Below are positions 4,467 to 60,623 of a DNA stretch of 64,000 nucleotides, piece after piece (the first letter of the stretch is position 1; each line of letters begins with the position of its first letter). This stretch comes from Candidatus Sumerlaeota bacterium. Its GTDB lineage: Bacteria; Sumerlaeota; Sumerlaeia; Sumerlaeales; Sumerlaeaceae. The DNA lies in assembly GCA_026398535.1 (NCBI GenBank), contig JAPLSQ010000031.1, positions 4,165 through 68,164 on the forward strand, in the 5' to 3' direction. The position numbers and the translations under genes were made by a program. The notes under the pieces are model-generated. The model did not search any database and was not told where the DNA came from. It worked only from the letters and a program-made list of their open reading frames with translations.

Positions 4467-4468
4467 GA

Positions 4469-24849: not shown

Positions 24850-24885
24850 CTCAAATTGCGCAAATCTGCAAAGAAGTTCGCCCGA

Positions 24886-40857: not shown

Positions 40858-42951
40858 TCAGCGGTTCTCGATCATTATCACAGCAGAACGGGCGGGAATC
40901 AGGAACCGGCCGTCGCACGGAGCGGCAACATGATTTTCCGGTGTTGCCCGTTGAAAGCGTTTGGCGCTGTTTGTTCGCGCACGACCCTCAAGAATCTTGG
41001 CGCTGTTATTCGCGATCAAAATGGCAAGCTTCCCGTTTTTCAGATTTCTGAGTACGCTGTAAAGCGGGTGGGGGGTGTCATCCACTGTCACTGATGCCCC
41101 GATTGTGCTTTGGAATTTCCCGTCCCAAAGATAATCGCTGAATTTCCGTCTTAGCGCATCCACCTTCGTGCCATATTCCACCGACAGGGGCATTTCATCA
41201 AGATGACCCTGAAAATTTCTCGGTTCATAACAGATGGCGTAGCGATAGAGAAGGCATAAATTAATTGTTTCGCGGTCATCATAACCATAGACCCAATTGA
41301 CCATGGGCAGAGCGGGGGAGAGGTAGCGGGTCACGGGGATGTGGCTGTCGAGGGTCCTGTGATAAGCGATGTTGTAATGGCGGTATTGCAGGTCATAAGG
41401 CCCTTCACCGGCAAGCACGGGCACAGCGGAGTATTGTTTGAGAAGACTGACGAGTTTTTTTTCAAAGACGGCATCGCCCGCAAAGTTGTAAGCGGGCATG
41501 CGATGTCCGTGTGATGTGTCAAAACAATAGAACGCGTTTCGGCCATGCCACATGGATTCGTCGAGCAGGATGCCATCAGGTTCCAGGAGCAGGCTTTTTT
41601 CGATTTGATCGAGCGCGATGTCCTGCCATTGGGGGCAGTTCATGCACATCCACGCATAAGGGCGTGTGTTGATCCCCGAAAGATGGGCGGGCGTATGGTA
41701 TTGCCAGCCTTCGTGTCCGTGGATATTCCCGAAGATGTCCTTGCTGGCATACTTGTGAAGCTCCATTTTATACCATTCGGTCCCGACATCCACACATGTG
41801 TATTTTTCATAAAGGATGACTTTCACGCCCATCCGTTGGATCTTTTCGATGGAGCGCTTGAGTTCTTTCCATGTTCCCAAACGGGGATCCGTCTCATGAA
41901 TCGGGAGCCTCCCGTCCTGCCCGTATAATGTCCATCCGACGATATGCAATACCCCGACGTTGTGGATTTTGCATTCGTGTCCGAAATCAACGAGTTGTTT
42001 ATAAGGCACACTGAGCGAGTCGCCCCATGAGTTCATCTGGATCATCTGCCACGAGTGCACATCTGCAGCCCAGGCCGGCGCCAGCGGCTGTTTCATCCAA
42101 GTCTTGCGCCATCGATTATAAATATCCGCGCCAGCCTGCCAGGTTCCCTTATACGGTTTAAGAATGATTGGGCTTGTTTCGCGGCATTCGCCCGGCTGAA
42201 TAAACGGATGATGCGCCGCCTTGAACTCGATGTGCGCGTCTTGGCTGCCCAGGCTGTCGTTGGGCGGAACATGGGGCGGCGTCGTGTACCCGGGTTTCAA
42301 CTCGAGGACAAACTCGGCGCGTGCCTGTGCGCTGGTATCATGGCATCCCGCATAAAGACCCTGCTCCTTGCTCTGTATGAGCATGAATGGGCTTTCGGGC
42401 GTTGCAACAATCTGAATTGGATATTCGGTTCCCCAATAACCGCGTTCATTTTCAAATTTTGGATAGATCTGTTTCGTGTAAAGATTGCAGTATCCCATGT
42501 GCGCTCGCGACAGAACTTCTCCTGGCGTCGGATTGCGCAGATCGCCAATCATGGGATAAAAAACCGACTCAACCGGATAGCGGGAGCAGTTGTTGATTTT
42601 AATTTCAAATTTAAGTCCGCCATTGGTCAGTGTCACCGTGGCCGTGATTTTGATGTCCAGCGCGCCCGTGTGCTGGCTGACAACATGATCCCAGTAGAAA
42701 GAGATTCGTTGGGGATTGTCCTCCTGGCTGATGAGTGGGGCATTTTGCCTCACGCCAGCGATCCTGTGCATAAGGCGTTCTGGAAGAGGCGCAATCATCA
42801 AAAATGACTGGGCCAGATGCGCGCGCCCTTGAATCTGCCAAGTTGTTTTATGATCTGTGAACTGCACGAGCGCGCCGTTTGTGGCATCGAAGACGGCACA
42901 CATTGCCTTGTTTTCGAGTCGGATAAGATTGCATGAATTGTTTTTTATCAT
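40858..42951 (-). CDS. Hypothetical cytoplasmic protein (~697 aa), possibly a glycoside-hydrolase-like TIM-barrel protein; function unknown
   Basis: Start placed at MIKNNSCNLIRLENK (42951), inside the longer track ORF 40858..43170 and overlapping the stop of the upstream gene (ATGA). The His/Arg-rich N-terminal extension in the track ORF looks non-genuine. Last gene of the long minus-strand glycan operon. Confidence 0.65.
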   Translation of the reverse strand: MIKNNSCNLIRLENKAMCAVFDATNGALVQFTDHKTTWQIQGRAHLAQSFLMIAPLPERLMHRIAGVRQNAPLISQEDNPQRISFYWDHVVSQHTGALDIKITATVTLTNGGLKFEIKINNCSRYPVESVFYPMIGDLRNPTPGEVLSRAHMGYCNLYTKQIYPKFENERGYWGTEYPIQIVATPESPFMLIQSKEQGLYAGCHDTSAQARAEFVLELKPGYTTPPHVPPNDSLGSQDAHIEFKAAHHPFIQPGECRETSPIILKPYKGTWQAGADIYNRWRKTWMKQPLAPAWAADVHSWQMIQMNSWGDSLSVPYKQLVDFGHECKIHNVGVLHIVGWTLYGQDGRLPIHETDPRLGTWKELKRSIEKIQRMGVKVILYEKYTCVDVGTEWYKMELHKYASKDIFGNIHGHEGWQYHTPAHLSGINTRPYAWMCMNCPQWQDIALDQIEKSLLLEPDGILLDESMWHGRNAFYCFDTSHGHRMPAYNFAGDAVFEKKLVSLLKQYSAVPVLAGEGPYDLQYRHYNIAYHRTLDSHIPVTRYLSPALPMVNWVYGYDDRETINLCLLYRYAICYEPRNFQGHLDEMPLSVEYGTKVDALRRKFSDYLWDGKFQSTIGASVTVDDTPHPLYSVLRNLKNGKLAILIANNSAKILEGRARTNSAKRFQRATPENHVAAPCDGRFLIPARSAVIMIENR

Positions 42952-45077
42952 GATGATGCTTTCTTGAGATGTATTAAGCAGGATTTGTGGGATGACAGGG
43001 AGATGACGGCTTGTTGATCTGATGCCGCTATTCGGCCCGGAATGAGCATATTGTGGGCGCTCAATTTGTATCCCGGATCCCCCCATGCCAGATTTCCCTT
43101 GGCACAGTTTTGTGAATTGCCGGTGATGCCGGTTTCGAGATTGCCAAGGAGGATGGTCATTTCGCCGCAAGCATCGCCCCAGGCAAGAAAGCAGACCGGC
43201 TTGAGCCAGTCGAGGTTATCCCAATTGATGCGGGCGGCGCCCCAAGAGAGATGATGCAGCGCCTTGACAATCGCAACGTATGTTTGGGGGCTCTGTATCG
43301 ATTGCGTTGTCAGGTTCAATTCACGGAGGGTTCCCCATTCCGGAGTTTCCCAGATCCAACAGGGATGGAGTTTATGCTTGGCGAAAACCGGACCATCAAG
43401 GCATGTGATAAGGCTCTCCCAATGCGGGGAAGAGCGCAGGATTCGCCGGCGCTGATTAATGACAAGACCGCGCGCGCCGGCAGCTACCGACAATTTTGGC
43501 GATAGGAACGCGCATGAGGGCAAAGTCTCAGTCACAATGCTCTCTTCCAAATCGACATTGAGTTCGCGCCGCAACAATTCCGGCATTTGCGCGGCCAATC
43601 CGGTGAAAATGAAAGGCAACCCTTCTTTGATTCGCGTGCTGATCCATTGGATCACATCAGCAGACAGATTGGCAGGCGCGGGAAAGATGTAAGCATCGGC
43701 TTGTGTCATTGGCGCCCATTCACTGCGTGTAATGGAAAGGACAGGCAGACCATATTTCATGATCATTGCGCACCAGTCATCCATTTCCTCACCCTGGCTG
43801 TATGGGGTCGGGTGATCGAGTAAGTGCTCAAGCCCGGCGCGGTGATAAATCAGGCAAGGGCCTGATGGCGTGGGATTGCGCGACAGGTCCGCCGAACAAG
43901 CGTCGAGCATGCCGACCAGCCATGTCACAGTTTGTTCCGGCAAAAGCTCCTTTCGGCGGTTCATCCATGAAATATAACATCCGGCAGAGCGGCAGGGATC
44001 GCCTTCCGGCTTCAATACCGCGGCATGGCTGTAAGCCCATATTTCCCATGCCACCTTGCTTGGATATTGATGAATGCTGTCCCATGGCTCCCACGCGTCA
44101 AATGTCTCGACAAGGAACATGTGACGGGTGCGGGTTTCCGCCAGCATGGCGAGATTGACCAACACATTCGCGAGCTGGAATGTGAAGCCGCTGGACTGTT
44201 GCGGCCAATAATCCTGCCATGCCGAGCCCCATGTTTGCGTGATCCAGAGATCAAAATGGCCTTCACGCGCCAGTTGCTCAAGATCGAAGCCGTGCGACCG
44301 CCATTCTTCAACGGGCGATATTCCGGAGTTGTAACCGATTACAATAAAGCGGGGATTGTTGGACTTGATGCGGGCAAACAGGCTGGAAAAGGCGCTGGTC
44401 CAATCACGGCGGGCTGCCGGCTCCATGTAACGGGCGCGGCTGTTGCCCCGCACATAAGCAGGGCTGAAGATGGCGTCGCGCAACACGATGGCATCCAACC
44501 CAATCGCGGCAGCCAGATCACATAATTTATCGGCAAAATAGACAGCGAGGGTTGGATGCGGCTCGCGGCAGGCTGCCTCGTCGGAGCTCGTGATAACCGT
44601 GGCGCCAAAGTAGAAAAGATCAAAACGTGGATCAAACACTTCACGATGATCACGGAACCATTGGCTTGTGATGTAATATCGCGCTGTTTCCTTGATTTCC
44701 TCAGTGCGCCCGCTGAATCCCTCGCATGGATCCATGGTCATGGATTCAACGCCAATCATCATGAGTGCGACGTTGAAATTCTGGATACCATGGCGATCAG
44801 CTTCATGCTTTAATGCCGTAATCAGTTCAGCCAAACGGCGGTAGGACCAAGTCTCATAGACAGGCGGCATACACGTGGGGATGACATCGTCGAGGTTGCC
44901 ATTCCAGCACAGAACAATGTCAAGCAACCAGCCTGCACATAGTGAAAGTCCATGGCGCGCGGTGGGATTTCTTTTCCACAATGGCTCAATGCGGTTGAAA
45001 AGTTCAGCCGCCTTCTCTTGGGGCTGTCCACCCTGAAACCAGCAGAGATCAATCTCCAACCAGCATTCTTTGTTCAT
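42948..45077 (-). CDS. Hypothetical cytoplasmic protein (709 aa); function unknown
   Basis: Long ORF with protein-like composition and no signal peptide, between the GH2 and 40858..42951 genes, 4-bp-overlap coupled to the latter. Confidence 0.65.
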   Translation of the reverse strand: MNKECWLEIDLCWFQGGQPQEKAAELFNRIEPLWKRNPTARHGLSLCAGWLLDIVLCWNGNLDDVIPTCMPPVYETWSYRRLAELITALKHEADRHGIQNFNVALMMIGVESMTMDPCEGFSGRTEEIKETARYYITSQWFRDHREVFDPRFDLFYFGATVITSSDEAACREPHPTLAVYFADKLCDLAAAIGLDAIVLRDAIFSPAYVRGNSRARYMEPAARRDWTSAFSSLFARIKSNNPRFIVIGYNSGISPVEEWRSHGFDLEQLAREGHFDLWITQTWGSAWQDYWPQQSSGFTFQLANVLVNLAMLAETRTRHMFLVETFDAWEPWDSIHQYPSKVAWEIWAYSHAAVLKPEGDPCRSAGCYISWMNRRKELLPEQTVTWLVGMLDACSADLSRNPTPSGPCLIYHRAGLEHLLDHPTPYSQGEEMDDWCAMIMKYGLPVLSITRSEWAPMTQADAYIFPAPANLSADVIQWISTRIKEGLPFIFTGLAAQMPELLRRELNVDLEESIVTETLPSCAFLSPKLSVAAGARGLVINQRRRILRSSPHWESLITCLDGPVFAKHKLHPCWIWETPEWGTLRELNLTTQSIQSPQTYVAIVKALHHLSWGAARINWDNLDWLKPVCFLAWGDACGEMTILLGNLETGITGNSQNCAKGNLAWGDPGYKLSAHNMLIPGRIAASDQQAVISLSSHKSCLIHLKKASS

Positions 45078-45115
45078 GGTTTGGATATCCTGTTAATCCG
45101 TATCAATATCGGGTG

Positions 45116-48100
45116 TCACGCGTTCCACGCCTCGGTGACCAATCCGTCAGGCTCGTTCACGCGAACTGATTTCGATTCGCCGGGTTCGAGCCAGAAGTAA
45201 TTGTCGTCGGGCAGGAAGGTGTCGAGGTGGCCATAGCGCAGTATGGCGGCCGCAACCGCGGGTAATGTGCCCGTGTTGGTCACCCGTGCCTGCATTTCGT
45301 GAACCTCAAGACGGAGCGTTGTTCTGGGCAGTATAAACAGACTGCCCTTCTCCGCCTCATAATTGACGAAGTAGAAGGTGCGGCTGGTCAAGGTGCTTTC
45401 TTTGATCACTTCGATGACGATAAACAACGGTGTGGCGCCGGTCTGTTGCGGTGTCAGCGAAAATTCGCCGAGTTGGCGCACCCGGTTAATCGCGCCCTTG
45501 CCGGAATACTCTTCAGCCTTGATGTGCCGGAGTTGGCCATCATAGGCGCGCACGTTAACACTCCAATGCGTCCCCTTAAGGCTGTCCGCATCGTCAAGCA
45601 GATATACAGGAAGTTTGAGCGCCTTGCCATTGTTATTCACGCTGTCGAACAACACGCAGGCATGCAGCGGGGCAAAGGCGTCCTGGAAAAAATAATGGCT
45701 TATCTTGGGGGCGCCGTACCAGTCGGCGCATGACCATGAGACGGCGGGCCAGTTGTCATTCATTTTGTAATACAGCGCGCCGGTACACTGCGGCCACCGT
45801 GTGCGGGCGCGTTCAATAGTATGACGTACCCCAACGGCTTGGGCCAGTTGCGAGCCAAGCACCACGTCCTTTATCGACGAGTTATTTGTGAAACAGCCCG
45901 AGTATTGCAGCAGGCGCGCCATATCCTCCATCCGGTTGAATACTGGGGTGTGATAGGCAAAGCTGCCGTGGGGCGGGGCAGGCCAGAGATCCTTTTCCTT
46001 GTCCGGAAGATAACGCATCACGGATTCATAAACGGGGCACGATGCCAATCCGAATTCGCCATAGAAAGGCGCCATCATCTTAAGATTATGGTCAAGGTGC
46101 TGTTTCTGCCACCAGCAATTATAGTTGTGTTCGCTGCCTCCCCAGGGCTCGCCACGATGGAACGGGCGTGTGCCGTCCAATTCGATGCTGTAGCGCCCCA
46201 TCATGTCGATGGCCTCCCCAAAGGGCTTGTCGGATTCATTGCCGCCTGTATAGATGACGAGGGAAGGATGATTGCGCAGGCGCAGCATGTTCAGTCGAAC
46301 GGTTTCCTCAAGCATTTCATAAGGCTGAAAATTGTGGCTGTTCCATGCCGTGGGCCATTCCTGCATGACCATGATCCCCTTGCGGTCGCACAAGTCATAA
46401 AAATCGTCGGTTTCCGGCATGCCCGCCCCCCATGCGCGGATTATCTGCACGTGCTGGCTGTCTGCGATGCTGAGGAAACGGTCGTAGCGGTCATGTGAGA
46501 AATCCATGTAAGAATCCATGGTGCACCAGCCGTTGCCTTTGACAAACATTGGTCGCCCGTTGATCACGAATGTCCAATTGTAGCGTCCGGGATTCGGACC
46601 GCCGGGGGAAGGCGCCATTTCAATTGTGCGTATGCCAAATGTGGTCTGCTTGAAATCGGCCGTCCCACTCCCATCGGGTAGAAATGAAAGAGACAGGCGG
46701 TAAAGGTTGGGTTCCCCGATATCATTCGGCCACCATAATTGTGGATTCGGGATGGTGAATCGCAGGCGCAGAGTTTTCGATTCCTCGACGCTCTTGACGT
46801 GAAAATAGAAATGATGCGCCCCGCCCTGAAAATTGTCAGGCTCCACGATTCCCACAAGTCTGCCTGACCAGTTTTTCGATGTTCCGGTCAGGTTGACCTT
46901 AAGATCCATCACGCCGCTCTCGGCGTTCCTGACGGCTATGAAGGGGTGCATGATGCGTATAGTTGGCGATGTTTCCACACGCACGTCACGCCATATGCCC
47001 AACGCCGGGATGTTGGAATAATGCCAGCCGTACACATTGTTGAACACCACGGTGCGCATCCAACCGACATTCAAACCTGTAAAGAAATGGTTTGGCCAGC
47101 CATGGCTGATTTCATGGGGTGCCGGATCGATGCGCACAATGAGCGTGTTTTCTTCCTTGAGAACACGGCTGACGTCATATTCAGGTCCGCCAAACATTCC
47201 TTCATGGCCGCCTAATTCATATCCGTTGAGCCAGACAGTGCACCGGATGGCAACGCCATCGAAGACAAGTTTCCAGCTCCCTGCGCTATTGGGGAGACGC
47301 CTGAATGTTTTTTTGAACCACCAGGTTTTAAAGCTTTTCATGCGGGCCGCCACATCCTGCGCGCCAATCGTGTGGTCAGGAAGCAGGCCCGCGCGTCTCA
47401 GCGCCCCGTGGACGCTTCCGGGCACGATTGCTGGAATGGCATCACGCCAGTCGCTGATGAGACGCGGGCATGGGTCTCCATCCTCGGCCATTTCCCATTC
47501 ACCAGCCAGCGACAGTGATGCGGGTGCGCAGGCTTTTTCTCCAGTTCCGCCAAGCAGCTTCACATTGACAGGGCGCGAAGCCATGGGGGGCGGCCCAGCC
47601 TTGTAACTCGCGATGTCAATCTCGTCCAGCGAGCCTGCCGGTTTCAGCAGGAGCAGCATGGGATTATGGGAAGCCGATAAGTCAGCACAGTCTTCATCTT
47701 CATCAGGCTGGTCAAACACCCATAATCCCAGAGTCTGCTTGTCGGTTTTCCATTGCAGGGAAGAAGATTGTGTGATGGTGCGGAGTCCGCCGGATATTTT
47801 CACGTGGCTGATCCATCCGTCACAATCATAGGCTGGCATCATGGCGTGTTCCATGGCGACTGCAAGCGGGCCGGGCACGCGCGGCATATCATTTGATGCG
47901 GGTTTCACCTCCTGGCTGCAAACCATGCGCCCGTCCACGAGGAGCTTCACTGTTCCGCCATCGTAGCGCATGGCCAGATCGTGCCACTGGTCATCAGTGA
48001 TATCGACAGGGGACTTTATTTCAAACGGATCATGCCATGATAAATGAGCGCTGAAGCAGCCGCTGCCCAAGTCGGAGTAGATTTCCCAGTGCGCAGAAGA

Positions 48101-48352: not shown

Positions 48353-51048
48353 TGATGATGCCCTGTGCTTTTAATGCGGCGGCAGCATAATCCGAATCTT
48401 GGTAGAGAGCCATGGACTCCTTGAAATGGCGCTTGAGATCATCGAGACGCGGATCACTTGCATGATCGCGCTGCCGTTCACACCACAATTTATAGGCCAC
48501 ACTCAGTTTGTTTTGAGCCGCGCGCATCTTCCGAATGCGGTCCTTGATTGACTGTGCATCGGTGTGGCCAATTTTAATACGCTGGTATTCGCAGGGTCCC
48601 AGTGTCAGCCTTATGCCGGCTTCCATTTGACGCCGGTCCATGGTGCGCGCTGAAGCCTGCCCGTCCGCCCCCATGATGGTGACATCATATTTCCCTTCGA
48701 TCAGTTTCTTGAATAATATGTCCGCTGTCTTTGGATTTGCCGTGGGATTAAATGCGTAAAAATTGCGTTCCGCTGATGAAGCCGCCTCTTGGAAACCTTC
48801 GAGCAGATCGAGGTTTAACACCATGATGTCGGGATCATTGCATTCGGCCATGGCTTCGAACAGGAGGTAATTCCACAGCGATATCTGCGACATGTAAATG
48901 GCGCGTCCCATGCCGCCATGATCGCCTCCACGCTCAGGCATGCAGAAATTTTCAATCGATATATAATCAGCAGGATTGTCGACAAGTTCCTTGCTCGTGA
49001 TGGTTTCCCCATGAAAAACGGGCGGAAAAAACCAGAAGCTGTTCAACCGCATTGTGTTGAACAGGCGCATGAGGAGTTGAATGGGCGCGCGCGGATTGTC
49101 TCCCCTGAGCATGACCGTCATGGGCAGGTATGCCTCAATCGTTTCCCATGGAGCGGCGCCAAGATAACTGACATATGCCTGGAAGAGTCCCGCATTTTTC
49201 AGTATTTTGTCCTTCGGATCCGTCTCAAGCGCGCTTTCATACCAGAATGTCGCGCGCAGAAGGCTGTTGAGGAAATCGCGTGAATAATGCAGAAACTTCC
49301 CGTCACCGGTCAGCTCGTATATTTTCTGTCCCGCAGCAATCCCGTAACTGTTTCCGAATATCTCGGTGATCGGGAAATCAACCGGATCGGTGTAAGTGAT
49401 TTCATAGTGCGTATTTTTCACGGAGTAAGTCATGTTGCCGGATAGCAAGGTATCCAGCGACCTTTTGGCTTCTTCCAGGAATGTAGTGTCGCCCGTCATT
49501 TCGTAGGCCTTTGCCATCAGCCATGCATAAGAGCCGTTCTGCCACGGCTCATAGACGATGCCCAGCTCTTTGACATCCTGCTGGATGACGTTCTGTTTTG
49601 AATATGGATCGAACCACTGGGAAAAAACGTAATTTACATTGTGCGCCAGCTCGATTTCAGCGGGAATGGCCATAAGAAAGTGGCCGGCCACGGCAGGATT
49701 AAAATCTTCGGGGGCGAGGATGTCGTGGAGTTTGAGCGTCTCGATGGCGAATGTGTAATGTTGCCAAGGCATTTCAAACTCGCCTATCTTGTTAAACTGC
49801 CTGATGCCATAACGTATCATCCGTGCTTTGGGATCATAGAACAGGGGATACCCGGTTGCTTTGCGGCGCAGGAATTCCCGCTGCGCGGGATCGCTATCAA
49901 GGCGTTCGATGGCAGCCCATGGCGCCACATAGTTGTTGCAGGTGGAGAAGTCGTATAAATCAGTTGCTCTCTTGCGGAACAGGGCGGGGTAGGCGCCTGA
50001 TTTGAGAGCATAATCGGGGCTGATGCGAATGACACTCACCGGCGTGGTCAAACCATCATCCCAAGGCGGCGCCACTTCGACATCATCCCATACAGCGCCA
50101 GGATTGCCCCCTGTATCCTTGACCATGAGATTGCTGATCATCTTTTTCGCGAAGTATGTCCAATTGGTCGGCCCACCCTTGTGATTGACGGGCAAGGACG
50201 AGTGAGCAGGATGGCAACCGCCAAATACATCAACCATCCGGTCGAGAGCCTGAAGACGAGTGGGTTTTTCAGGCCGACTGGCCGCATACAAATAATACTC
50301 CGCCATGACACGATCACCGGAGGGAACCGGGTTGCTTGTAATTTCCAAGGCCCACAGTCCGAGTCCCGACCTGCCATCACGTTGCGCTGACTGCACGCGA
50401 TATGCCCGGTTGAAGCGGTTCTTGCCCATCCAGGTAAGTTGTGACATCTGCGCGAAGAAAGCTGCCTCTTTGCCATCGATCCAGATATACGCGGCGGGGA
50501 AACCGTTGGCCCATCCATTCACGTCGGCTCCGGTGTAAATATTGCCCGGTCCTTGGTTGACGGCCGCATCCACAGACGGCCTGTTCATCCACAACACAGC
50601 AGATGGCTGGGGAGTATTTATGGATAAAGGCGAGGTCAAATGGCATGTGACTGTAACATGAATGAGCGGATTGCCGCTCATTGCTTCAACAAGCGCATCC
50701 CATTTGTACCCCAAGCGTTCATGCTGCCCGTAGAGCATAACCGCTACACGTGTCGTGTTGTTTTCAACAACTGTGTGCGATCGGGGATACAGGTCGAAAT
50801 TCGGTCCGCTGAGCAGAGGCCCGCCACCGTCAAACAAGGGTTCCCATCGATCATGGTTGCGGATGAATGTGTATAGTCCGAGCCCTTGGGTTGTTGAATC
50901 TGCCGCGATCCCGGTTTGCGCAAGGGAATGACTCGTGCAGGATTGCAGGAAGACGACCTTGTGAAGCTCGTTGGCTATTTCAATGCATTCTGCTGATACC
51001 TTGAGCCAGGGCTTCGCCTGCGGGTGAACATGTTGCATCATGATCATA
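48327..51048 (-). CDS. Large protein of unknown function, paralog family member P3 (~905 aa), apparently cytoplasmic (no signal peptide)
   Basis: Start placed at MIMMQHVHPQAKPWLKVSAECIEIANELHKVVF, which aligns with the mature N-termini of P1/P2 and lies 68 bp after the upstream permease stop. The extra 115 aa in the track ORF (48327..51392) overlap the permease gene and look spurious. Shares the PQPSAVLWMN, GFPAAYIW, DFNPAVAGHFLM, GNSYGIAAG and SRDFLNSLLRATFWYE blocks. Confidence 0.75.
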
Positions 51049-51115
51049 ACCGTCCAGAAACATAATGTCAGCAATGGATGCCGATGATACACGGTAAGCG
51101 CTGTGTGACAGATTC

Positions 51116-52000
51116 TCAAATTCCCGACAACCCCGACAGTTTGATGCCTTCGACGTAATATCGCTGGTTGAAGAGAAAAATGACGATGATCGGGATGAGC
51201 ATCATGACAGACCCGGCCATGAGCAGCGGCCAATCGGTGCCATGCATGCCCTGGAATGTGGAAAGACCGACCATTACGGTGCGCATCTGTTCGCTGTTTG
51301 TGATGATCAGCGGCCAGAGAAAATCCTTCCACACACCAAGGAAGACAAACGTGGTGAGCGTGGCGAGCGCGGCCTTTGACAGGGGCAGGCAAATGCGATA
51401 ATAAATTTTGAACAGCGATGCGCCGTCGATTTTTGCGGCTTCCTCAAGCTCCACCGGTAATCCCATGAAAAATTGACGAAGCATGAATGTGCCATATGCT
51501 GAGAACATGCCCGGCACAATCAGGGCGAAATAGGAATCGACGCCGATGACCTTGCCGAAATACTGGTTGCAGATGTAGATCTCGGCGTCACTTATCCTGC
51601 CAAGCCAACTGATCAGTATGAAGACAGGGATCATCGTGACAGCGCCCGGAATCATCATCGTGGCGAGATAACCGAAAAACAGTTTGTCCCGGAGTGGGAA
51701 GTTCAGACGGGCGAATGAGTATGCCGCAAGCGAGCTTGTGATGATCTGTCCCGCCGTCACAAAGGCAACAATCAGGACGGTGTTCAACACAAACCGCCCG
51801 AATGGCAGCGCTTTCCATGCGGAAATATAGTTCGACCAAACGATGGGCGAGGGGATGAGCTGTTCAAAGAAGCCGGACTGGGCAAACACCTTGGACGCAT
51901 GCGTCAATGATGTTGCCAGCATCCACAGAAAAGGCAGTGTCATTGCGATGCCAACAACGGCAAGTATGACATACGTTGCGGTGTGACCAATGATTTTCAT
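51116..52000 (-). CDS. Carbohydrate ABC transporter permease (MalG/family-1 inner-membrane component)
   Basis: Start at MKIIGHTATYVILAVVGIAMTLPFLWMLATSL, inside the longer track ORF 51116..52147; EAA-like loop AAKIDGASLFKIYYRICLP. Confidence 0.8.
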   Translation of the reverse strand: MKIIGHTATYVILAVVGIAMTLPFLWMLATSLTHASKVFAQSGFFEQLIPSPIVWSNYISAWKALPFGRFVLNTVLIVAFVTAGQIITSSLAAYSFARLNFPLRDKLFFGYLATMMIPGAVTMIPVFILISWLGRISDAEIYICNQYFGKVIGVDSYFALIVPGMFSAYGTFMLRQFFMGLPVELEEAAKIDGASLFKIYYRICLPLSKAALATLTTFVFLGVWKDFLWPLIITNSEQMRTVMVGLSTFQGMHGTDWPLLMAGSVMMLIPIIVIFLFNQRYYVEGIKLSGLSGI

Positions 52001-52068
52001 GAGAATTCGGTAATGAATTCTTCTGTGAAGGGGGGGCTGTTTGGTCTGATCAAGCATTGTTCGTAAGC

Positions 52069-53028
52069 TCAGTAATAATGTACCCTGCGTCCTCCGAACT
52101 TCCAATTGAGCAGCGTCGCCGCGAAGACAAAGATGAAGAGTATCCATGCCAGCGCCGAAGCGTAGCCCATGTAATATTGCTCAAAGGCCTTTTGGTAGAT
52201 GTAGTAGGCGATGGTGGTGCTTGAACCGGCCGGGCCGCCGCGCGTGAGAACATAAAGGGAATCGAAACCGCCCTGGAATGCGCCAATCAGGCTCATTGTG
52301 ACGATGAAGAATGTTGTTGAGGAGAGCATGGGCCAGGTGATGTTGCGGAACTTCTGCCAGTTGGAAGCGCCGTCGATGTCAGCAGCTTCGTAAAGATGCG
52401 GGGGAATGCCCTGAAGTCCCGCAAGGTAAAGCAGCATATTGTAGCCGCCAATAGAGGTCCAGAATCCCATGAAAATAAGGGCGGGCTTGACCCACAGCGG
52501 TGAGCCAAGCCAGTTGGGGCCATTGATGCCAACCACGGAGAGAAGCTGGTTGAGGAGGCCAAAATCAGGATTCAGCAGCCAGCGCCACAACTGGTACATC
52601 GCGACCCCGGCTGCGATTGTGGGAATGAAATACAGCGCCCGGAAAAAGTTGATGCCCCGCAGCTTGGTGTTCATCACAAGGGCAAGTGCCAGAGATCCGA
52701 ACATGCTGAGAGGGATGCCAATCATGAAAAAGAAGGTGTTCCACAAGTATTGCCAGAACCGGGGATCGTTCGCGTGCAGGTGATTCCAGAAACATAGCCA
52801 GTCCGTGAGCCCGGTCATATTGTCTGTCCGGAGTTTCAGGCCAATGATGGAGGTGAAATTCCTCAGGCCGATAAATTCCGAGTTTTGCGAGTTGAAAATA
52901 TCCCAGTTGGTGAAACTCAGCAGCAGTGAAGCCGCGACAGGAAGCAGTGTGAAAGCAAGAAAGCCAGCCAGGTTGGGCATGATGAATAGATAACCGCATA
53001 ACGCCTCTTTGGTCTTGCGCGAGAACAT
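52069..53028 (-). CDS. Carbohydrate ABC transporter permease (MalF-like)
   Basis: Multi-TM; EAADIDGASNWQKFRNITWP permease motif. Confidence 0.85.
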   Translation of the reverse strand: MFSRKTKEALCGYLFIMPNLAGFLAFTLLPVAASLLLSFTNWDIFNSQNSEFIGLRNFTSIIGLKLRTDNMTGLTDWLCFWNHLHANDPRFWQYLWNTFFFMIGIPLSMFGSLALALVMNTKLRGINFFRALYFIPTIAAGVAMYQLWRWLLNPDFGLLNQLLSVVGINGPNWLGSPLWVKPALIFMGFWTSIGGYNMLLYLAGLQGIPPHLYEAADIDGASNWQKFRNITWPMLSSTTFFIVTMSLIGAFQGGFDSLYVLTRGGPAGSSTTIAYYIYQKAFEQYYMGYASALAWILFIFVFAATLLNWKFGGRRVHYY

Positions 53029-53036
53029 GGGCCTGT

Positions 53037-54320
53037 CTATGGTTCCTCCGAGAGAAGCTGGTTGATATTGTCAGTCATGTTGTCACACGCCTGCTCGGCG
53101 GTCTGTGTGTTCACGTAGACGAATTCAAGCTCGCGTCCGATGATGTCCATCATCTCGGCAATGCGCGGGTGTTTCGGAAACGCGTAACCATAAGGCAGGG
53201 CATCGATGAATGCATGATCATTCTTTGGTGGTTGTGTGGGATCCAGAAAGACGGCTGACTCGGTGAGCGATTTGAGCGCCGGCATGAAAACACCCCGGCG
53301 CGTGAACGCCGTCATGCCTTTTTCACCGGCAAGATACTTTGCCAATTCCCATGCTTGTTTTGGATGGCGGGTTTCACGCGGTATGCAGAAACCGAGTCCG
53401 ACGATGAGTGATGCCCGTTGTTTGCCCTTTGGCAAGGGCGCAACGTCCCACTGGAAATTCTTTATCTGGCGGAAGCGGGGCAGCACATAGCGCCCTGTCG
53501 GGATCATTGCCAGTTTGCCGTTAAGAAACATCTGTTCGGGATCCATGCCGCTCAACAGACTGGCAACTTGTGAACTGGGTGAGACGTGGTATTTGTTGGT
53601 CAAGTCGGTGTAGAAACGCAGTGCCTCTTTGGCTTCGGGAGTGTTCAACAGGCAGCGTTTCCCGTCAGTGGTGAGCATGTCACCGCCATTCTGCCATACC
53701 ATCTCCATCCAGTCGCGGACACAATATCCGAACTGGGTATAACGGCCCTGCGCATCCTGTTTGGTGAGCTTCTGCGCCGCATTGAGCAGAGCCTGCCAAT
53801 CCCATGACTCGTCAGGATATGACACGCCCGCCTTATCGAACAGATCCTGATTGTAATAGAGCACGAATGTGCCGGAATCAGCGGGCAAGCCATAAAGCCT
53901 GCCTTCCCACCGGAAGGCGTCAATAATAACAGGATAAAAGTTGGTGATCGCGAACTCGTGATCTTCCGCTACGTACGGATCGAGGTCAAGGAGGGCGTTG
54001 CGCGCGGCGAAACCCGCAAAGCGTTCCGGCTGCATGTAAAACACATCGGGCGGAGTGCCCGCCGCGATCATTGAAAGAATCTTGCCGTAATAGTCCGAAC
54101 CGCCGGCTGTGAAAATATACTCAATCTTAATGTTGCTGCGCGTGCGTTCGAACTCGGCCAAGATGTCCTTGGTGATTTGTATCTCCTCGGGCACGAGGCC
54201 CCAGGTGACATAACGCAGAATGACCCGATCGTCCGAGGGGCGTGTTATTCTGATGCAGCTTGGCAACAGGCACAAGAGCGCCGCCACAGCGGCGCAAGAT
54301 ATGGCCTTGGGCAAGATCAC
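53037..54320 (-). CDS. Carbohydrate ABC transporter substrate-binding lipoprotein (family 1)
   Basis: Lipoprotein signal AVAALLCLLPSC; family-1 binding-protein composition. Confidence 0.8.
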   Translation of the reverse strand: MILPKAISCAAVAALLCLLPSCIRITRPSDDRVILRYVTWGLVPEEIQITKDILAEFERTRSNIKIEYIFTAGGSDYYGKILSMIAAGTPPDVFYMQPERFAGFAARNALLDLDPYVAEDHEFAITNFYPVIIDAFRWEGRLYGLPADSGTFVLYYNQDLFDKAGVSYPDESWDWQALLNAAQKLTKQDAQGRYTQFGYCVRDWMEMVWQNGGDMLTTDGKRCLLNTPEAKEALRFYTDLTNKYHVSPSSQVASLLSGMDPEQMFLNGKLAMIPTGRYVLPRFRQIKNFQWDVAPLPKGKQRASLIVGLGFCIPRETRHPKQAWELAKYLAGEKGMTAFTRRGVFMPALKSLTESAVFLDPTQPPKNDHAFIDALPYGYAFPKHPRIAEMMDIIGRELEFVYVNTQTAEQACDNMTDNINQLLSEEP

Positions 54321-55117
54321 CAGATTGTGTAACCGCCATCGATGACGATATCCGTGCCAGTCATGAAACTTGAGGCATCGGACGAAAGATAGAGCGCCAG
54401 ACCGTCGAGGTCCTGTGGAACGCCGATGCGCTCCAAGGGTGTGTCGCGGCGGATGCCGTCCACCAGTTCCGGCATTTCAAAGATGCCCCGGGTCATTTCT
54501 GTTGCCATGTAACCAGGGCTGATGCAGTTCACTCTGACATTGTGCCGCGCCCAGAACGCGGCAAGCGCGCGCGTCAACTGCCTGACGCCAGCCTTTGCGG
54601 CACAATAGGCTGGAATGGCTGTCTGCCTGGTCTCGGGCACATACTCGGGCGGGAAGCGATTCACGATGCCCGCCGACATTGATGCCATGTTGATGATGCT
54701 GCCCCTCTTGCGGGCAATCATGTGCCTTGCCTGGGCCATGCAACAATAATAGACCCCGCTGAGATCAATGCCGATGACTCTTCTCCATATCTGCTCAGGT
54801 GTCGTGTCATCGGGCGCGCCATCGGAAACACCTGCCGCGTTGACGGCAATATCCAGTCCTCCCATGTCTTCGTGGATCGCGCTGATAACCGCGGCAACAT
54901 TCACATGATCGGAGACGTCGATCTGAAACGCGCTCGCATGCCCTCCAGATTTCACAATATCTTCGGCTGTGCGTGCGGCGCCATCAATGTTAATATCAGC
55001 AATGGCTACTTTTGCGCCTGCCCCTGCAAGTGTCCGCGCAATCTGGCGGCTCAAGCCCGATGCTCCGCCCGTTACTACGGCGATGCGGCCTGACAAATTG
55101 AATATATCGAAGCTCAT
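54317..55117 (-). CDS. Short-chain dehydrogenase/reductase (SDR) family oxidoreductase
   Basis: TGGASGLSRQIA Rossmann motif and the SDR catalytic region (…YCAAKAG…); stop overlaps the downstream binding-protein start. Confidence 0.85.
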   Translation of the reverse strand: MSFDIFNLSGRIAVVTGGASGLSRQIARTLAGAGAKVAIADINIDGAARTAEDIVKSGGHASAFQIDVSDHVNVAAVISAIHEDMGGLDIAVNAAGVSDGAPDDTTPEQIWRRVIGIDLSGVYYCCMAQARHMIARKRGSIINMASMSAGIVNRFPPEYVPETRQTAIPAYCAAKAGVRQLTRALAAFWARHNVRVNCISPGYMATEMTRGIFEMPELVDGIRRDTPLERIGVPQDLDGLALYLSSDASSFMTGTDIVIDGGYTIW

Positions 55118-55148
55118 TTAATTGCTCCCATGAAAAAACGGACCAGAA

Positions 55149-55988
55149 TCATGCCTTGAGCCCTGTCATTGTTATTCCCTCGACAAAATATCGCTGAGAA
55201 AAGAAAAAGACAACGATCAGCGGAATGATCACGATGGCCGACGCCGCCATCATCAGCTCCCATTGAACGCCCCGAACACCGATTGTCTTGGATAAAAAGC
55301 AGAAAAGCGCAAGGGGCAGTGTGTATAGTTGTTGATCGTGAACGAACAGGAGAGGCGTCCACAAATCATTCCATGATCCCATGAATGTGAAGACGATGAC
55401 AGTGAGAATTGCCGGCTTGGACAATGCCACAAACACGCGGAAGATGATGGCCCATTCGGAAGCCCCGTCGATCCTGGCCGAATCCACATAATCCTGGGGG
55501 ATTGAGGCAAAAAACTGCCGCAGAAGGAAGATCGCGAACACATTGACGCCAAGCCACGCAGGCACAAACATCGGGTAAAGCGTGTTGATCCATCCGAAGG
55601 ACACATACATCCTGAAGACAGGTATCACAGTCACCTGCGCCGGCAGCATCATCGTGGAAAGCAGCAGTATGAAAAACGCCTCTTTGCCTTTTGCCCGCAA
55701 TCTTGCGAAAGCATAGGCAGCCATCGCGGAGGAGAGGAATGTGCCCGTAATTGCCAGGATCACAACAACAAGCGAGTTGCGCAGATACAGGGCGAAATCA
55801 AATGAGGTCAGCGCCTCCACATAGTTGCTCCACATGGGTTTCTGGGGAAGCCAGACTGGCGGCTCCCGATAAACTTCCGTGAAGGTTTTCAATGAGGTGA
55901 GAATCATCCAAGCCAGCGGAATCAGCATGAGCAACGCCCCTGAGGAAAGGCATGCGTGCGCTACTACGGATCGGAAGTGTTGTTTCAT
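55149..55988 (-). CDS. Carbohydrate ABC transporter permease (MalG-like), second set
   Basis: Start at MKQHFRSVVAHACLSSGALLMLIPLAWMILTSL, overlapping the upstream permease stop; inside the longer track ORF 55149..56069; SARIDGASEWAIIFRVFV motif. Confidence 0.8.
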   Translation of the reverse strand: MKQHFRSVVAHACLSSGALLMLIPLAWMILTSLKTFTEVYREPPVWLPQKPMWSNYVEALTSFDFALYLRNSLVVVILAITGTFLSSAMAAYAFARLRAKGKEAFFILLLSTMMLPAQVTVIPVFRMYVSFGWINTLYPMFVPAWLGVNVFAIFLLRQFFASIPQDYVDSARIDGASEWAIIFRVFVALSKPAILTVIVFTFMGSWNDLWTPLLFVHDQQLYTLPLALFCFLSKTIGVRGVQWELMMAASAIVIIPLIVVFFFSQRYFVEGITMTGLKA

Positions 55989-56797
55989 GCTTTGTCCTGG
56001 AATACCCATAAGTGTTTCAGCGAGAAGTTGAGCAGGGTCAGGACAAGAATCAGGAAGAAGAGAAACCACGCCATCGCCGATGCGAGACCCATGTGAAAGT
56101 ATGTGAAGGCGGTGTCGTAAAGATTAAGCACATAAAAGAGCGTGGCGCGCGCGGGTCCTCCCACGACGCCAGGCCCCGCCAATCCGGTAAAGCGGCGGAA
56201 TGCTCCCGCCCCGTCAATCTCCGCAGATTCGTAAAGCGCCCGAGGGATGCCCTGAAGGCCGGCGAGGAAGATAAGCATTGTTCCCCCGAAACTCCATGCG
56301 GCCATGATAACAAGCGCCGGCAGAGCCCAAGTGGTTGAATTCAGCCATGCCGGTCCTTCAATGCCCGCCGCAGCCAGCATGCGGTTCAGGATGCCATATT
56401 TGGGATTAAATATCCAGATCCAGATGATTGCGGACGCTGTCGCTGGCAGGATTGCTGGCAAAAAATATACCGTGCGGTAAAATCCGATGGCGCGCACGCG
56501 CAGGTCAAGCAGGAGCGCCGCCAGCAAGGCGCTGCAAAGGTTCAAAGGCACATACATCAGCGCATAAAGAAGTGTGACCTTTAGCGATATCCAGAAGGTT
56601 GGCTCGAATTGAAACAGAAACAGATAGTTCCGCAACCCGATGAATTGTGGCGGGCTGACAGCATCATATTTAGTGAATGATAAATACAGGCTGGCCAGCA
56701 TGGGGCCGGCAGTCAGTATCAGAAATCCAGCCAGGGCCGGGGTCACAAGCGTCCAGAACCACAGTGTTTCGTGCCGCATGGTGGGCGAACGCATCAA
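55985..56797 (-). CDS. Carbohydrate ABC transporter permease (MalF-like), second set
   Basis: Multi-TM; SAEIDGAGAFRRFTG permease motif. Confidence 0.85.
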   Translation of the reverse strand: MMRSPTMRHETLWFWTLVTPALAGFLILTAGPMLASLYLSFTKYDAVSPPQFIGLRNYLFLFQFEPTFWISLKVTLLYALMYVPLNLCSALLAALLLDLRVRAIGFYRTVYFLPAILPATASAIIWIWIFNPKYGILNRMLAAAGIEGPAWLNSTTWALPALVIMAAWSFGGTMLIFLAGLQGIPRALYESAEIDGAGAFRRFTGLAGPGVVGGPARATLFYVLNLYDTAFTYFHMGLASAMAWFLFFLILVLTLLNFSLKHLWVFQDKA

Positions 56798-58200
56798 TTC
56801 TGTTTAATATCCTTTCCGAGTGTGGGGATGAATGTGTTTACGGCCTCCGAGGCGCGGCGGGCAGTCATGGCGGGCGTCTGTTTGTCCAGCAGCATTAGAT
56901 CAATCTCAGGCTGGATAACCTTGAGCATGATCTCCACGAAATCCGGCTGGCGGGGCAGTGTGCGTCCGAGTTCCAACGCTTCGTAAACAATCTCGGTGTG
57001 CTGCGGATCCTGTGGCCTTTCGCCAGGCTTCCCGGCAAGCACTGTCTCTTTGGCGATTGATTTGCGCACCGGCAGATAACCTTGTTGCGCATGGCGCCGG
57101 ATGCTTTCCTTCGACACGAGGAATTTAAGAAATTCCCATGCCTCATCCTTGTGCGGGGATGTTTTTGCGATTCCCATAGCGTCGATCGCGTACTCGCCTC
57201 CCTGCGCCTTGGGGCCGCGCGGCAGCACCTGGATGTCCCAGTGAAGACCCTCGATTTTCCTGTAGACAACCCATAACGCGGCATGTCCGCCATAATCCAT
57301 GGCGACGATTCCGCTGGCGAACTCCGGCGGAATCGGGCCGTATCCGGGCGGCGGGGAAACCTTGTAACGATATATCTTGTCGCGGTAGAACGTCAGCCCT
57401 TTGACAGCTTCAGGTGTGTCCAGCGTGCAGCGTGCAAGGTCGGGCGTGAAAAATGTTCCGCCGGCCTGCTCGACGAAGATGCCCCATTCGCCCCACCATC
57501 CCCCTGCGATGTTGCTGCCCCATTGCGTGACTTTTCCAGATGCATCCTTCAGTGTCAGGGTTTTCGCGGCTTTGATGTAATCATCCCATGTCCACTGCCT
57601 TGTGGGATAGGGCAACCCGGCCTTGTCGAACAGATTCTTGTTATAGTAGAGAAGATCGACCGTGAAATATCGCGGCATGTAATAGTATCGCCCCTGGTGT
57701 CTGCATCCCTCGATAAGTTGCGGGTAAAAATCAGCCAGTTCCATTTCCGCCGAATCGCTCTCGACATATGAAGTGATATCCGCAAGCGAGGATAGCATGT
57801 ATGGGGCGAAGACATCGCTGCACCAGAAGACGTCCGGCGCCTGGCCTGCCGCCGAGAGAGTTTTGAGTTTTGTATGGTACTGCCCTCCCGCCACCCACAT
57901 GATATCCACGCGGATGGCGGGATGAGCCTGCTCGAATATCCGCACGAGTTCCTCGAGCATTGGCTTGTTCACGGCGTCGTTTGAAAGCATCCACGTGAGA
58001 GTTGTCTTGTGGTTGTCGTTGTGAGCGCCGTGTGAAAGCGCAAATGCCGCGATAGCGGATATCGCGATGATCACGATACCGCATGTCTGAAGCAGCGGCC
58101 TTGTAAATTTCACTTTCAGTCTGCGGGGGCGGTTTCTTGAGATAATGATATTCCGGTCGAAATGAATGCGGAAATTCACTTTCGGCCAGCCATGTAACAT
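56794..58200 (-). CDS. Carbohydrate ABC transporter substrate-binding protein (family 1), second set
   Basis: N-terminal hydrophobic signal (TCGIVIIAISAIAAFALS), probably using an internal start; family-1 binding-protein composition; first gene of the long minus-strand operon. Confidence 0.75.
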   Translation of the reverse strand: MLHGWPKVNFRIHFDRNIIISRNRPRRLKVKFTRPLLQTCGIVIIAISAIAAFALSHGAHNDNHKTTLTWMLSNDAVNKPMLEELVRIFEQAHPAIRVDIMWVAGGQYHTKLKTLSAAGQAPDVFWCSDVFAPYMLSSLADITSYVESDSAEMELADFYPQLIEGCRHQGRYYYMPRYFTVDLLYYNKNLFDKAGLPYPTRQWTWDDYIKAAKTLTLKDASGKVTQWGSNIAGGWWGEWGIFVEQAGGTFFTPDLARCTLDTPEAVKGLTFYRDKIYRYKVSPPPGYGPIPPEFASGIVAMDYGGHAALWVVYRKIEGLHWDIQVLPRGPKAQGGEYAIDAMGIAKTSPHKDEAWEFLKFLVSKESIRRHAQQGYLPVRKSIAKETVLAGKPGERPQDPQHTEIVYEALELGRTLPRQPDFVEIMLKVIQPEIDLMLLDKQTPAMTARRASEAVNTFIPTLGKDIKQN

Positions 58201-58294
58201 AAAACCATGTTTATATGATCATGAATCGTCAAGAACAAAAATCATGTTTGGGCATATTTTATTCAGGAGCGCGCATCGTCTTCGTTCATACTGT

Positions 58295-60592: not shown

Positions 60593-60623
60593 ACGACAGG
60601 AAATCAAACAAAGGCCACATGCC

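Follow-up and report, generated by a model that had tools for sequence, protein, structure and literature searches.

A 17-kb run of minus-strand genes (positions 40858-58200) in a 64,000-nt stretch of the genome of a Candidatus Sumerlaeota bacterium (contig JAPLSQ010000031.1; the whole stretch is called the window below) probably encodes the uptake and disassembly half of a system for utilising heteroglycan oligosaccharides. The more general claim, that these genes serve carbohydrate import and cleavage, is well supported. In the best-supported reading the functional unit extends past 58200 into a divergent catabolic operon (58507 to beyond 64000). That operon is part of the same system and was overlooked in a preliminary description of this DNA, which had confined itself to the minus-strand block. 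The genes of the block, in the order given by their Pfam annotation, are the following.

56794..58200, minus strand: SBP1, a CUT1-type extracellular solute-binding protein (SBP) with a hydrophobic N-terminal anchor (SBP_bac_1, 6.5e-45)
55985..56797, minus strand: permease 1a, MalF-like, matching BPD_transp_1 in its N-terminal half only, with a 96-nt in-frame deletion between 56186 and 56187
55149..55988, minus strand: permease 1b, MalG-like (BPD_transp_1, 1.7e-15), with an ATGA overlap with permease 1a
54317..55117, minus strand: short-chain dehydrogenase/reductase (SDR) family oxidoreductase (adh_short_C2, 3.7e-60)
53037..54320, minus strand: SBP2, CUT1-type, with a lipoprotein-like N-terminus (SBP_bac_1, 7.9e-46) and a GTGA overlap with the SDR gene
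52069..53028, minus strand: permease 2a (BPD_transp_1, 1.5e-12)
51116..52057, minus strand: permease 2b (BPD_transp_1, 6.8e-15)
48327..51047, minus strand: P3, 906 aa, putatively a glycoside-cleaving enzyme, from a family not yet classified, assigned from its AlphaFold2 (AF2) fold
45116..48298, minus strand: LamG-GH2, 1060 aa, a beta-mannosidase-like glycoside hydrolase (GH) predicted to be cytoplasmic (Laminin_G_3, Glyco_hydro_2_N2, Glyco_hydro_2, Glyco_hydro_2_C)
42948..45077, minus strand: 709-aa protein with a GH42/GH151-like three-domain fold (AF2 model and Foldseek), from a family without a Pfam model
40858..42951, minus strand: DUF6259 protein of 697 aa, putatively an enzyme with a GH-like TIM barrel (PF19773, 1.2e-12), with an ATGA overlap with the 709-aa gene

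The open reading frame (ORF) listing and its translations give an uninterrupted run of 11 genes, one fewer than the twelve counted in the preliminary description. Its account of tiny gaps and overlaps was accurate. Four 4-nt start/stop overlaps lie exactly where they had been placed (56794-56797, 55985-55988, 54317-54320, and 42948-42951), and the remaining gaps measure 8, 11, 28, 31, 38, and 71 nt, the longest being upstream of P3. Two of the overlaps (55985-55988 and 42948-42951) are of the ATGA type that had been assigned to all four, whereas 54317-54320 is GTGA and 56794-56797 is TTGA. The Pfam layout also places the SDR between the two transporter sets, as described. A consensus scan revealed no convincing intrinsic terminator in any gap of the block. 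The 71-nt gap before P3 folds more weakly than shuffled sequence (z = +1.86) and contains two sigma-70-like matches; region-wide, such matches occur at the frequency of chance (15 found, 14.5 expected). Of the internal terminators and promoters that the preliminary description had named as evidence against the block, no convincing terminator emerged, and the promoter-like matches do not exceed chance. Because the genes are co-directional, with gaps of at most 71 nt, four overlaps, and no convincing terminator, co-transcription is plausible, and this layout would allow a single transcript across all 11 genes. A Logan contig matches the window at 100% identity over 17 kb, and the NCBI metagenome-assembled genome (MAG) GCA_037138735.1 matches it at 99.8%.

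Both transporter sets combine an SBP_bac_1 binding protein with two BPD_transp_1 permeases, as in CUT1-type importers, and the EAA-loop region of the permeases is conserved in alignment. The sets are paralogous, with 31% identity between SBP1 and SBP2 and 35% between the first permeases (1a and 2a). In the NCBI annotation of the MAG, SBP1 is given a later start (439 aa), and the hydrophobic N-terminus of SBP2 ends in LLPSC. No MalK/MsmK-type ATPase is encoded in the block; the sole ABC ATPase motifs of the 64-kb window belong to two Opp-type genes at 1643-3621. Set 2 has a full complement of intact membrane subunits, and set 1 does not. Compared with five conspecific assemblies that are 99.7-100% identical on both flanks, permease 1a is missing 96 nt, and alignment with permease 2a and with its ortholog in a related locus (L001) places the loss of 32-33 residues directly after the EAA loop. 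The deleted residues (AITMPMLSPVIFFNLVMSVIGAMKVFDQAFVF) constitute the transmembrane helix that follows this loop, leaving five hydrophobic helices instead of the six in the intact 296-aa form of the conspecific assemblies. An exact-sequence look-up of the shortened permease returned no match, consistent with the intact form being present in the other assemblies examined. With one helix lost, set 1 is probably defective in this sequence, or else the assembly is wrong at this point; the deletion may thus reflect variation between strains, decay of the gene, or an artefact of assembly. The earlier claim of two complete modules, each with a binding protein and two permeases and neither with its own ATPase, is thus correct as to the ATPase and overstated as to set 1.

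The four large proteins and the SDR carry no N-terminal hydrophobic segment, while SBP1 and SBP2 both do. The large enzymes are predicted to be cytoplasmic on this basis, and the combination of signal-less enzymes with anchored binding proteins fits cytoplasmic processing of imported oligosaccharides. An intracellular oligosaccharide-processing pathway had been proposed in the preliminary description, and it is upheld by these features together with the GH2 domains and the carbohydrate-related character of the two proteins of about 700 aa.

LamG-GH2 has the full GH2 domain set. All three GH2 domains score above their gathering thresholds (Glyco_hydro_2_N2, 3.1e-21; Glyco_hydro_2, 6.6e-10; Glyco_hydro_2_C, 2.4e-10), and the closest solved structures are beta-mannosidases (5n6u, 3.4e-60; 6bye, 1.2e-48). 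Indeed, beta-mannosidases occupy the range from 1e-47 to 1e-60 in the PDB ranking, followed by the exo-beta-glucosaminidase 2vzu at 2e-16 and by weaker galactosidases. Both catalytic glutamates are kept: GGNE(688) aligns with the GNNE acid/base motif of 6bye, and GE(748)FG aligns with the nucleophile motifs SEYG of 6bye and SEFG of 5n6u. This homolog ranking points to beta-D-mannosides as candidate substrates. The domain order and both glutamate motifs are those of the GH2 beta-mannosidases (5n6u, 6bye, 2je8), from which the window protein differs by its low identity and by an additional N-terminal LamG domain of ~240 residues. That LamG domain is homologous (2e-17) to two LamG domains fused to P3 in another protein (P0122, locus L001), indicating that the same accessory domain moves between both enzymes. 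The beta-mannoside-like pathway named in the preliminary description is not supported beyond this one enzyme, the specificity of which is itself putative. About 1.7 kb past the end of the cluster and on the opposite strand, a cupin with a mannose-6-phosphate-isomerase C-terminal-type domain is encoded at 38476-39111 (plus strand; PF01050, 2.7e-10). Should mannose be among the products released, this cupin may have a part in its use.

Structure assignment of the 709-aa protein relied on modelling. Across 40 relatives, no Pfam model matched at E <= 1, including PF02449 and the GH42 trimerisation domain, and searches of NCBIfam and of PDB sequences (the latter with the single sequence or a profile) were also negative. 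An AF2 model built from a 71-sequence alignment reached a predicted local distance difference test score (pLDDT) of 94.3. Foldseek ranked the GH151 alpha-L-fucosidase 6tvk first (1.2e-17), and also retrieved the GH5 exo-mannosidase 7bob and many GH42 beta-galactosidases (1.6e-16 to 1e-12), at a template modelling (TM) score of ~0.5 and ~10% identity; the GH151 and GH42 matches have probability 1.0. The three-domain GH42 fold is present in the model, while membership of GH42 by sequence is not. Because the fold matches and no sequence does, we regard the modelled protein as GH42-like in its three domains and its family as not yet classified. With GH42 beta-galactosidases and GH151 enzymes (4uni, 5dfa, 6tvk) it has in common a TIM barrel, an alpha/beta 'trimerisation-like' domain, and a beta-sandwich, as well as an invariant glutamate ending barrel strand 7 (E324, at the end of strand 318-324 by our count). 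It is set apart from them by the low identity and TM score, the missing GH42 Pfam match, and the residues at strand 4. Clan GH-A enzymes carry Asn-Glu at this position. In the 709-aa protein the strand counted as the fourth (196-200) ends in an invariant Arg-Asp (R200-D201), suggesting that the clan GH-A acid/base motif is not conserved. A paralog with 52% identity lies in another cluster of the same MAG (contig JBAXHV010000018.1; loci L006/L007), which also contains two DUF5054 proteins, two unannotated ~840-aa proteins, CUT1 permeases, an SBP, and a GntR/PBP regulator.

The 697-aa protein belongs to DUF6259 (PF19773; score 48 bits, cut-off 28.7), as do all 45 aligned relatives. These relatives also match DUF5696 (37 of 45), GHL6, Alpha-amylase, and GH30C weakly, the Alpha-amylase and GHL6 models being reached by four relatives each at 0.012 and 4e-4, respectively. 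For membership of GH13 or GHL6 there was no significant match, the best profile-to-PDB hit being a sub-threshold GH13 entry (0.015). The invariant residues D464, E516, and D559 may correspond to GH13 regions II-IV. Profile-profile comparison revealed no relationship between the DUF6259 and 709-aa families (probability 0.3%). Both proteins had been described as lacking recognisable motifs, which holds for the 709-aa protein with regard to Pfam and fails for the 697-aa protein. The possibility that profile searches would show them to be unrelated to carbohydrate metabolism, raised in the same description, was contradicted by the GH42/GH151-like fold of the former and the weak GHL6 and alpha-amylase signals among relatives of the latter.

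P3 had no sequence match in Pfam, NCBIfam, or PDB. Its AF2 model (pLDDT 93.6) consists of an N-terminal beta-sandwich, an (alpha/alpha)6 barrel of twelve long helices (residues 366-730), a second beta-sandwich, and a C-terminal helical bundle. With the whole chain, Foldseek retrieved members of polysaccharide lyase (PL) family PL27 and of GH95, GH94, GH101, and GH36, all at TM <= 0.38; GH76 and cellobiose 2-epimerase superpose on the barrel only, at TM 0.55-0.60. Faint sequence matches to GH76, GH88, GH127, and the C5-epimerase C-terminal domain place P3 in the six-hairpin superfamily, and the P3 profile reached a GH76 structure in PDB at 0.0019 over only 85 residues. Neither sequence nor whole-chain structure assigned it to GH76, GH88, GH127, GH94, GH95, or PL27. 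P3 follows the same order of beta-sandwich and (alpha/alpha)6 barrel as the six-hairpin carbohydrate-active enzymes of PL27 (5no8), GH95 (2ead), and GH94 (3rrs), and differs from these families and GH76 by the addition of a C-terminal beta-sandwich and a three-helix bundle. A profile search identified 348 relatives among 1.84 billion cluster representatives, some of them fused to LamG, F5/8-type-C, HpiC1-like, or dockerin domains. Four residues (W601, E634, R666, and E698, numbered on a 905-residue query) are invariant across 47 diverse relatives.

The window contains three copies of P3, two of which had been missed:

8542-11316, minus strand: P3 paralog (586 bits against P3, 37% identity over the full length; no Pfam match) with a signal-peptide-like N-terminus (…AVLCAALFLLPPQVHGAP…)
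11352-14219, minus strand: P3 paralog in tandem with the preceding one (568 bits against P3; no Pfam match)

The signal-peptide-like N-terminus of the first paralog suggests that exported and cytoplasmic forms of P3 coexist in one genome. The tandem paralogs adjoin a second carbohydrate locus (14235-26043). It comprises an FGGY kinase (14235-15962, minus strand), a GntR + Peripla_BP_3 hybrid regulator (16086-17261, plus strand), a beta-helix protein (17354-19048), a URO-D-like protein (19887-21017), a 1256-aa GH2 with F5/8-type-C and carbohydrate-binding module (CBM)-like domains (21079-24849), and a second GntR/PBP regulator (24886-26043, minus strand). Downstream of the paralogs, Walker A and LSGGQ motifs identify the two Opp/Dpp-type ATPase genes (1643-3621, minus strand), and same-strand ORFs at 3618-7326 look as if they complete an ABC system of the Opp type, which may belong to the peptide-transporter family and import oligosaccharides. 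A 1198-aa ORF without a Pfam match (30625-34221, plus strand) has the carbohydrate loci on one side and the genes for enolase and PriA on the other.

On the other side of SBP1, the divergent operon encodes a set of sugar-catabolic enzymes:

58201..58506, no strand: intergenic (promoter) stretch that separates SBP1 from the divergent catabolic operon, 306 nt, AT-rich
58507..59532, plus strand: GFO/IDH/MocA oxidoreductase, inositol-dehydrogenase-like (Pfam; TIGR04380 iolG, 290.7 bits against a cut-off of 355)
59546..60592, plus strand: Zn-dependent alcohol/polyol dehydrogenase, Zn-ADH (ADH_N + ADH_zinc_N)
60573..62144 (ORF), plus strand: FGGY-family sugar kinase (FGGY_N + FGGY_C; XylB, 262 bits, and gntK_FGGY, 205 bits, both below cut-off)
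62157..63137, plus strand: 326-aa distant shikimate-dehydrogenase-fold oxidoreductase (no Pfam match; weak shikimate dehydrogenase matches)
63156..63722, plus strand: cupin of the cupin-type phosphoglucose isomerase family (PF06560, 5.6e-29; no NCBIfam equivalog)
63735..64000, plus strand: N-terminus of a D-2-hydroxyacid dehydrogenase, cut by the window end (by-eye alignment with the 2-Hacid_dh protein that follows the cupin in loci L008 and L026)

The closest characterised relatives of these enzymes appear to act on inositols, polyols, and ketohexoses, none of them at a curated cut-off. The nearest PDB entries of the GFO protein are inositol dehydrogenases (3ezy, 1.1e-49; 4mkx, 1e-48). The Zn-ADH scored about equally as threonine 3-dehydrogenase (209 bits) and as the scyllo-inosose 3-dehydrogenase IolM (202-205 bits; IolM cut-off 450), below cut-off in both cases. 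Translation places the true start of the FGGY kinase probably near 60621. Weak matches of the 326-aa protein included the NCBIfam shikimate dehydrogenase model (7e-12), PDB entry 1nvt (1.7e-4), and the 5-ketofructose reductase 7cok (9.4e-4). The SDR of the minus-strand block is similarly ambiguous, its nearest NCBIfam models being PRK06114 and gluconate 5-dehydrogenase/KduD-type, all below cut-off. Within the promoter region, the near-palindrome AAAAYCATGTTT occurs exactly at 58201 and 58238 and in degenerate form at 58327. It was considered as an operator and rejected: five of 100 shuffles reached its count window-wide, and it is absent from 11 related loci. As it is neither enriched nor conserved, we make no operator claim.

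Recurrent synteny connects the divergent operon to P3. Among 47 P3 loci from other organisms, scored with the window proteins, about 10 carry at least three genes of the catabolic module. The labelled taxa among these were Verrucomicrobiae, a 'Nitrospiraceae' bin, Clostridia, and Selenomonadaceae, the others being unbinned metagenomic contigs. Homologs adjoining P3 included the GFO protein (7 loci), Zn-ADH (8), FGGY kinase (8), 326-aa protein (7), and cupin (6). A 2-hydroxyacid dehydrogenase follows the cupin in L008, L026, L033, and L043, and in L008 and L033 it is followed by a 2-keto-3-deoxy-6-phosphogluconate (KDPG) aldolase. This aldolase scores above its NCBIfam cut-off in related loci and lies within the module of L008, L009, L026, and L033. 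Related loci also contain a fucose-isomerase-like gene, lactonase-like genes, and PTE or metallo-beta-lactamase hydrolases. AP_endonuc_2 homologs stand beside P3 in six of the 47 loci, two of which (L028, 1067-1957; L036, 21344-22213) reached 389-398 bits on the D-psicose 3-epimerase equivalog (cut-off 300). These neighbours hint at ketohexose metabolism around the P3 family. An all-against-all ORF comparison gave a second large cluster (25 loci, median 275 aa), which we rejected as a gene family, since it is probably composed of antisense shadow ORFs of P3.

Locus L043 carries both enzyme genes of the block and the catabolic module. Its gene order is GH2, P3, 709-aa homolog, LamG-GH2, and then GFO, Zn-ADH, FGGY kinase, the 326-aa protein, cupin, and 2-hydroxyacid dehydrogenase; its P3 scores 1042 bits against the window P3, and its 709-aa homolog is 62% identical. 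Within its 16 kb there is no DUF6259, SDR, or transporter gene. A different arrangement is found in L001, L034, and L036, where an SBP1-permease-permease set with the SDR and/or DUF6259 adjoins one to three P3 paralogs, and neither GH2 nor the 709-aa gene stands beside P3. By gene, P3-adjoining orthologs of SBP1 occur in L001, L034, and L036, of the SDR in L001, L034, and L035, and of DUF6259 in L001 and L036. The system thus combines at least two modules, each of which also recurs on its own. The single mega-operon of the preliminary description is a putative reading, and comparative loci show the block to be assembled from modules that assort separately in other organisms.

These observations suggest the following model. 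Two membrane-anchored CUT1 binding proteins would capture oligosaccharides for import by the two permease pairs, powered by a shared MsmK/MalK-type ATPase that is presumably encoded elsewhere. Four signal-less enzymes would then dismantle the oligosaccharide in the cytoplasm. LamG-GH2 would act as a retaining hydrolase of the beta-mannosidase clade, with E688 as acid/base and E748 as nucleophile. The GH42/GH151-like TIM-barrel enzyme of 709 aa, with E324 as candidate nucleophile, would work alongside the DUF6259 TIM-barrel enzyme, and the six-hairpin P3 may be an inverting glycosidase acting through E634 and E698, with R666 binding substrate. An unusual monosaccharide released in this way, possibly a rare hexose, ketohexose, or cyclitol to judge from the closest relatives of the enzymes concerned, would be converted by the SDR and the enzymes of the divergent operon. 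It would enter central metabolism through redox epimerisation, phosphorylation, and isomerisation, in an order that we propose tentatively, with a KDPG-type aldolase as the endpoint in related loci.

Several results weigh against this model. P3, the 709-aa protein, and DUF6259 all represent families without a characterised member, and neither DUF6259 nor DUF5696 is mentioned in the literature library searched. None of the catabolic genes in the window reached an NCBIfam equivalog threshold, which leaves their pathway unassigned, no regulator gene was found in the cluster, and permease 1a is shortened. About 37 of the 47 P3 loci lack the catabolic module within 10 kb. Homologs of the 709-aa protein in Cohnella, Chthonomonadales, and a second Sumerlaeota locus have other partners (GH35, GH42, GH116, and DUF5054). 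Finally, the best whole-chain fold match of P3 is the polysaccharide lyase BACCELL_00875 (5no8; 1.1e-7, TM 0.30-0.38), which we take to represent the PL27 family of L-Rha-alpha-1,4-GlcA lyases. With a lyase at low TM as the best match, the hydrolase chemistry proposed for P3 is tentative.

The block could instead be a mosaic of two or more abutting independent utilisation units, forming neither one pathway nor one transcript. One unit (SBP1, its permeases, the SDR, DUF6259, and P3) would serve one substrate, and the other (SBP2, its permeases, GH2, and the 709-aa enzyme) would act on a beta-mannoside or galactoside. The arrangement in L001, L034, and L036, which retain the SBP1-type transporter with the SDR and/or DUF6259 and P3 but not GH2 or the 709-aa gene, is what such units would predict, and so is the company of P3, the 709-aa gene, and GH2 in L043 apart from DUF6259, the SDR, and transporters. 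The varied partners of the 709-aa homologs and the position of the largest gap (71 nt), directly before P3 and with two sigma-70-like matches, point in the same direction. However, no gap exceeds 71 nt, overlaps cross the supposed unit borders (DUF6259/709-aa gene and SDR/SBP2), no terminator was found, and the promoter-like matches are at chance frequency. Moreover, P3 occurs in both groups of loci used for comparison. On balance we consider a mosaic unlikely.

A second alternative concerns the chemistry of P3, which might be a lyase or an epimerase-type enzyme acting on uronate-containing oligosaccharides and not a hydrolase. A 4-deoxy-hexosulose-uronate product would then be reduced by the SDR (KduD/DehR-like), phosphorylated, and cleaved by KDPG aldolase. 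Besides the 5no8 match, this agrees with the profile of the wider family: among 47 P3 relatives, the glucuronyl C5-epimerase C-terminal domain was matched weakly in 16 and GH88 in six. The invariant R666 could pair with a carboxylate, the nearest NCBIfam models of the SDR include gluconate 5-dehydrogenase and KduD, and an SDR and a PfkB kinase flank P3 in L034 and L035. KDPG aldolase is present in L008, L009, L026, and L033, with no sugar-acid dehydratase seen in the annotated loci. Against these points, the TM score to 5no8 is low, and all the Pfam and NCBIfam matches are sub-threshold. The invariant columns of P3 do not include the Tyr/His pair typical of such lyases and epimerases. Furthermore, the cupin is of the phosphoglucose isomerase type (PF06560), with no KduI among its Pfam matches, and there is no PfkB kinase in or beside the window cluster. 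We consider lyase or epimerase chemistry unlikely but a serious competitor to the hydrolase reading.

It is highly improbable that P3, the 709-aa protein, and the DUF6259 protein have no carbohydrate activity of any kind and are, for instance, scaffolds or part of an unrelated pathway, lying near sugar transporters by chance: they do lack sequence matches to characterised families, and their catalytic residues are only candidates, but the GH42/GH151-like and six-hairpin folds are of high confidence, LamG, F5/8-type-C, NPCBM, and dockerin fusions occur among P3 and 709-aa relatives, and GH, sugar ABC, and sugar-catabolic neighbours are consistent across unrelated organisms.

A bolder extension of the uptake-and-disassembly model can also be considered. 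P3 would found a new six-hairpin CAZy family that releases a rare sugar, the linked module would be an undescribed catabolic route for that sugar, and the 709-aa and DUF6259 proteins would represent new GH families acting on the same glycan. P3 would exist in secreted CBM-bearing and in cytoplasmic forms, the rare sugar would be of ketohexose, cyclitol, or other unusual hexose type, and its source would be an environmental heteroglycan. We offer this reading tentatively and regard it as somewhat unlikely to hold in full.

Sumerlaeota and the neighbouring uncultivated groups (Armatimonadota, Verrucomicrobiota, Planctomycetota, and Hydrogenedentes) probably degrade complex glycans of the environment, with an enzyme repertoire much of which is unannotated. 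Three uncharacterised and apparently carbohydrate-active families occur here in one tight cluster, where each can be tested in the company of a defined transporter, a beta-mannosidase-like partner, a common LamG module, and a conserved downstream catabolic operon. Work on P3 and the operon could reveal both a new enzyme family and a new route of sugar catabolism, and would allow a few hundred metagenomic homologs of P3 to be annotated, along with many more proteins of the 709-aa and DUF6259 families. Should common specificities emerge for the enzymes, the locus would be just another oligosaccharide utilisation cluster.

Two known catabolic routes were compared with the divergent operon. In Thermotoga maritima, the myo-inositol pathway of Rodionova et al. 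2013 reportedly runs through IolG, IolM, IolN, and IolO. The similarities are that the window GFO protein is nearest to inositol dehydrogenases, the Zn-ADH scores on IolM, and related loci end at KDPG aldolase. The match is partial and below equivalog cut-offs, and the pathway was rejected for the operon: the IolG and IolM scores fall short, and the window has no match to IolN or IolO. On the IolO model, the AP_endonuc_2 neighbours in related loci reach 117-120 bits, but as D-psicose 3-epimerase they score far better and exceed the cut-off. Counterparts of the FGGY kinase, shikimate-dehydrogenase-fold protein, cupin, and 2-hydroxyacid dehydrogenase are lacking in the inositol pathway, for the oxidative Thermotoga form of which a passage of PMC3750489 cites Rodionova et al. 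2013. We also rejected the L-glucose/L-galactose pathway of Luteolibacter, which employs an altronate dehydratase, a tagaturonate reductase, and a separate 2-keto-3-deoxygluconate kinase (PMC12632266), as no catabolic gene in the window matches its functions. A literature search for the combination of FGGY, shikimate dehydrogenase, cupin, and MocA proteins found nothing.

A close parallel is provided by the CUT1-linked oligosaccharide loci of the Gram-positive type, which combine cytoplasmic exo-glycosidases with a shared MsmK-type ATPase. As in those loci, the window pairs SBP_bac_1 proteins with two BPD_transp_1 permeases, has no ATPase in the cluster, places signal-less glycosidases downstream, and adjoins a monosaccharide operon. 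Unlike them, its transporter sets are split by an SDR, no regulator is encoded locally, families without a characterised member supply three of the four enzymes, and the catabolic module matches no curated pathway model. In design, the system is a standard CUT1-type utilisation locus. Its departures from that design are its enzymes (two of the three uncharacterised families have no Pfam model), the expansion of the small P3 family to three copies, and the linked catabolic module.

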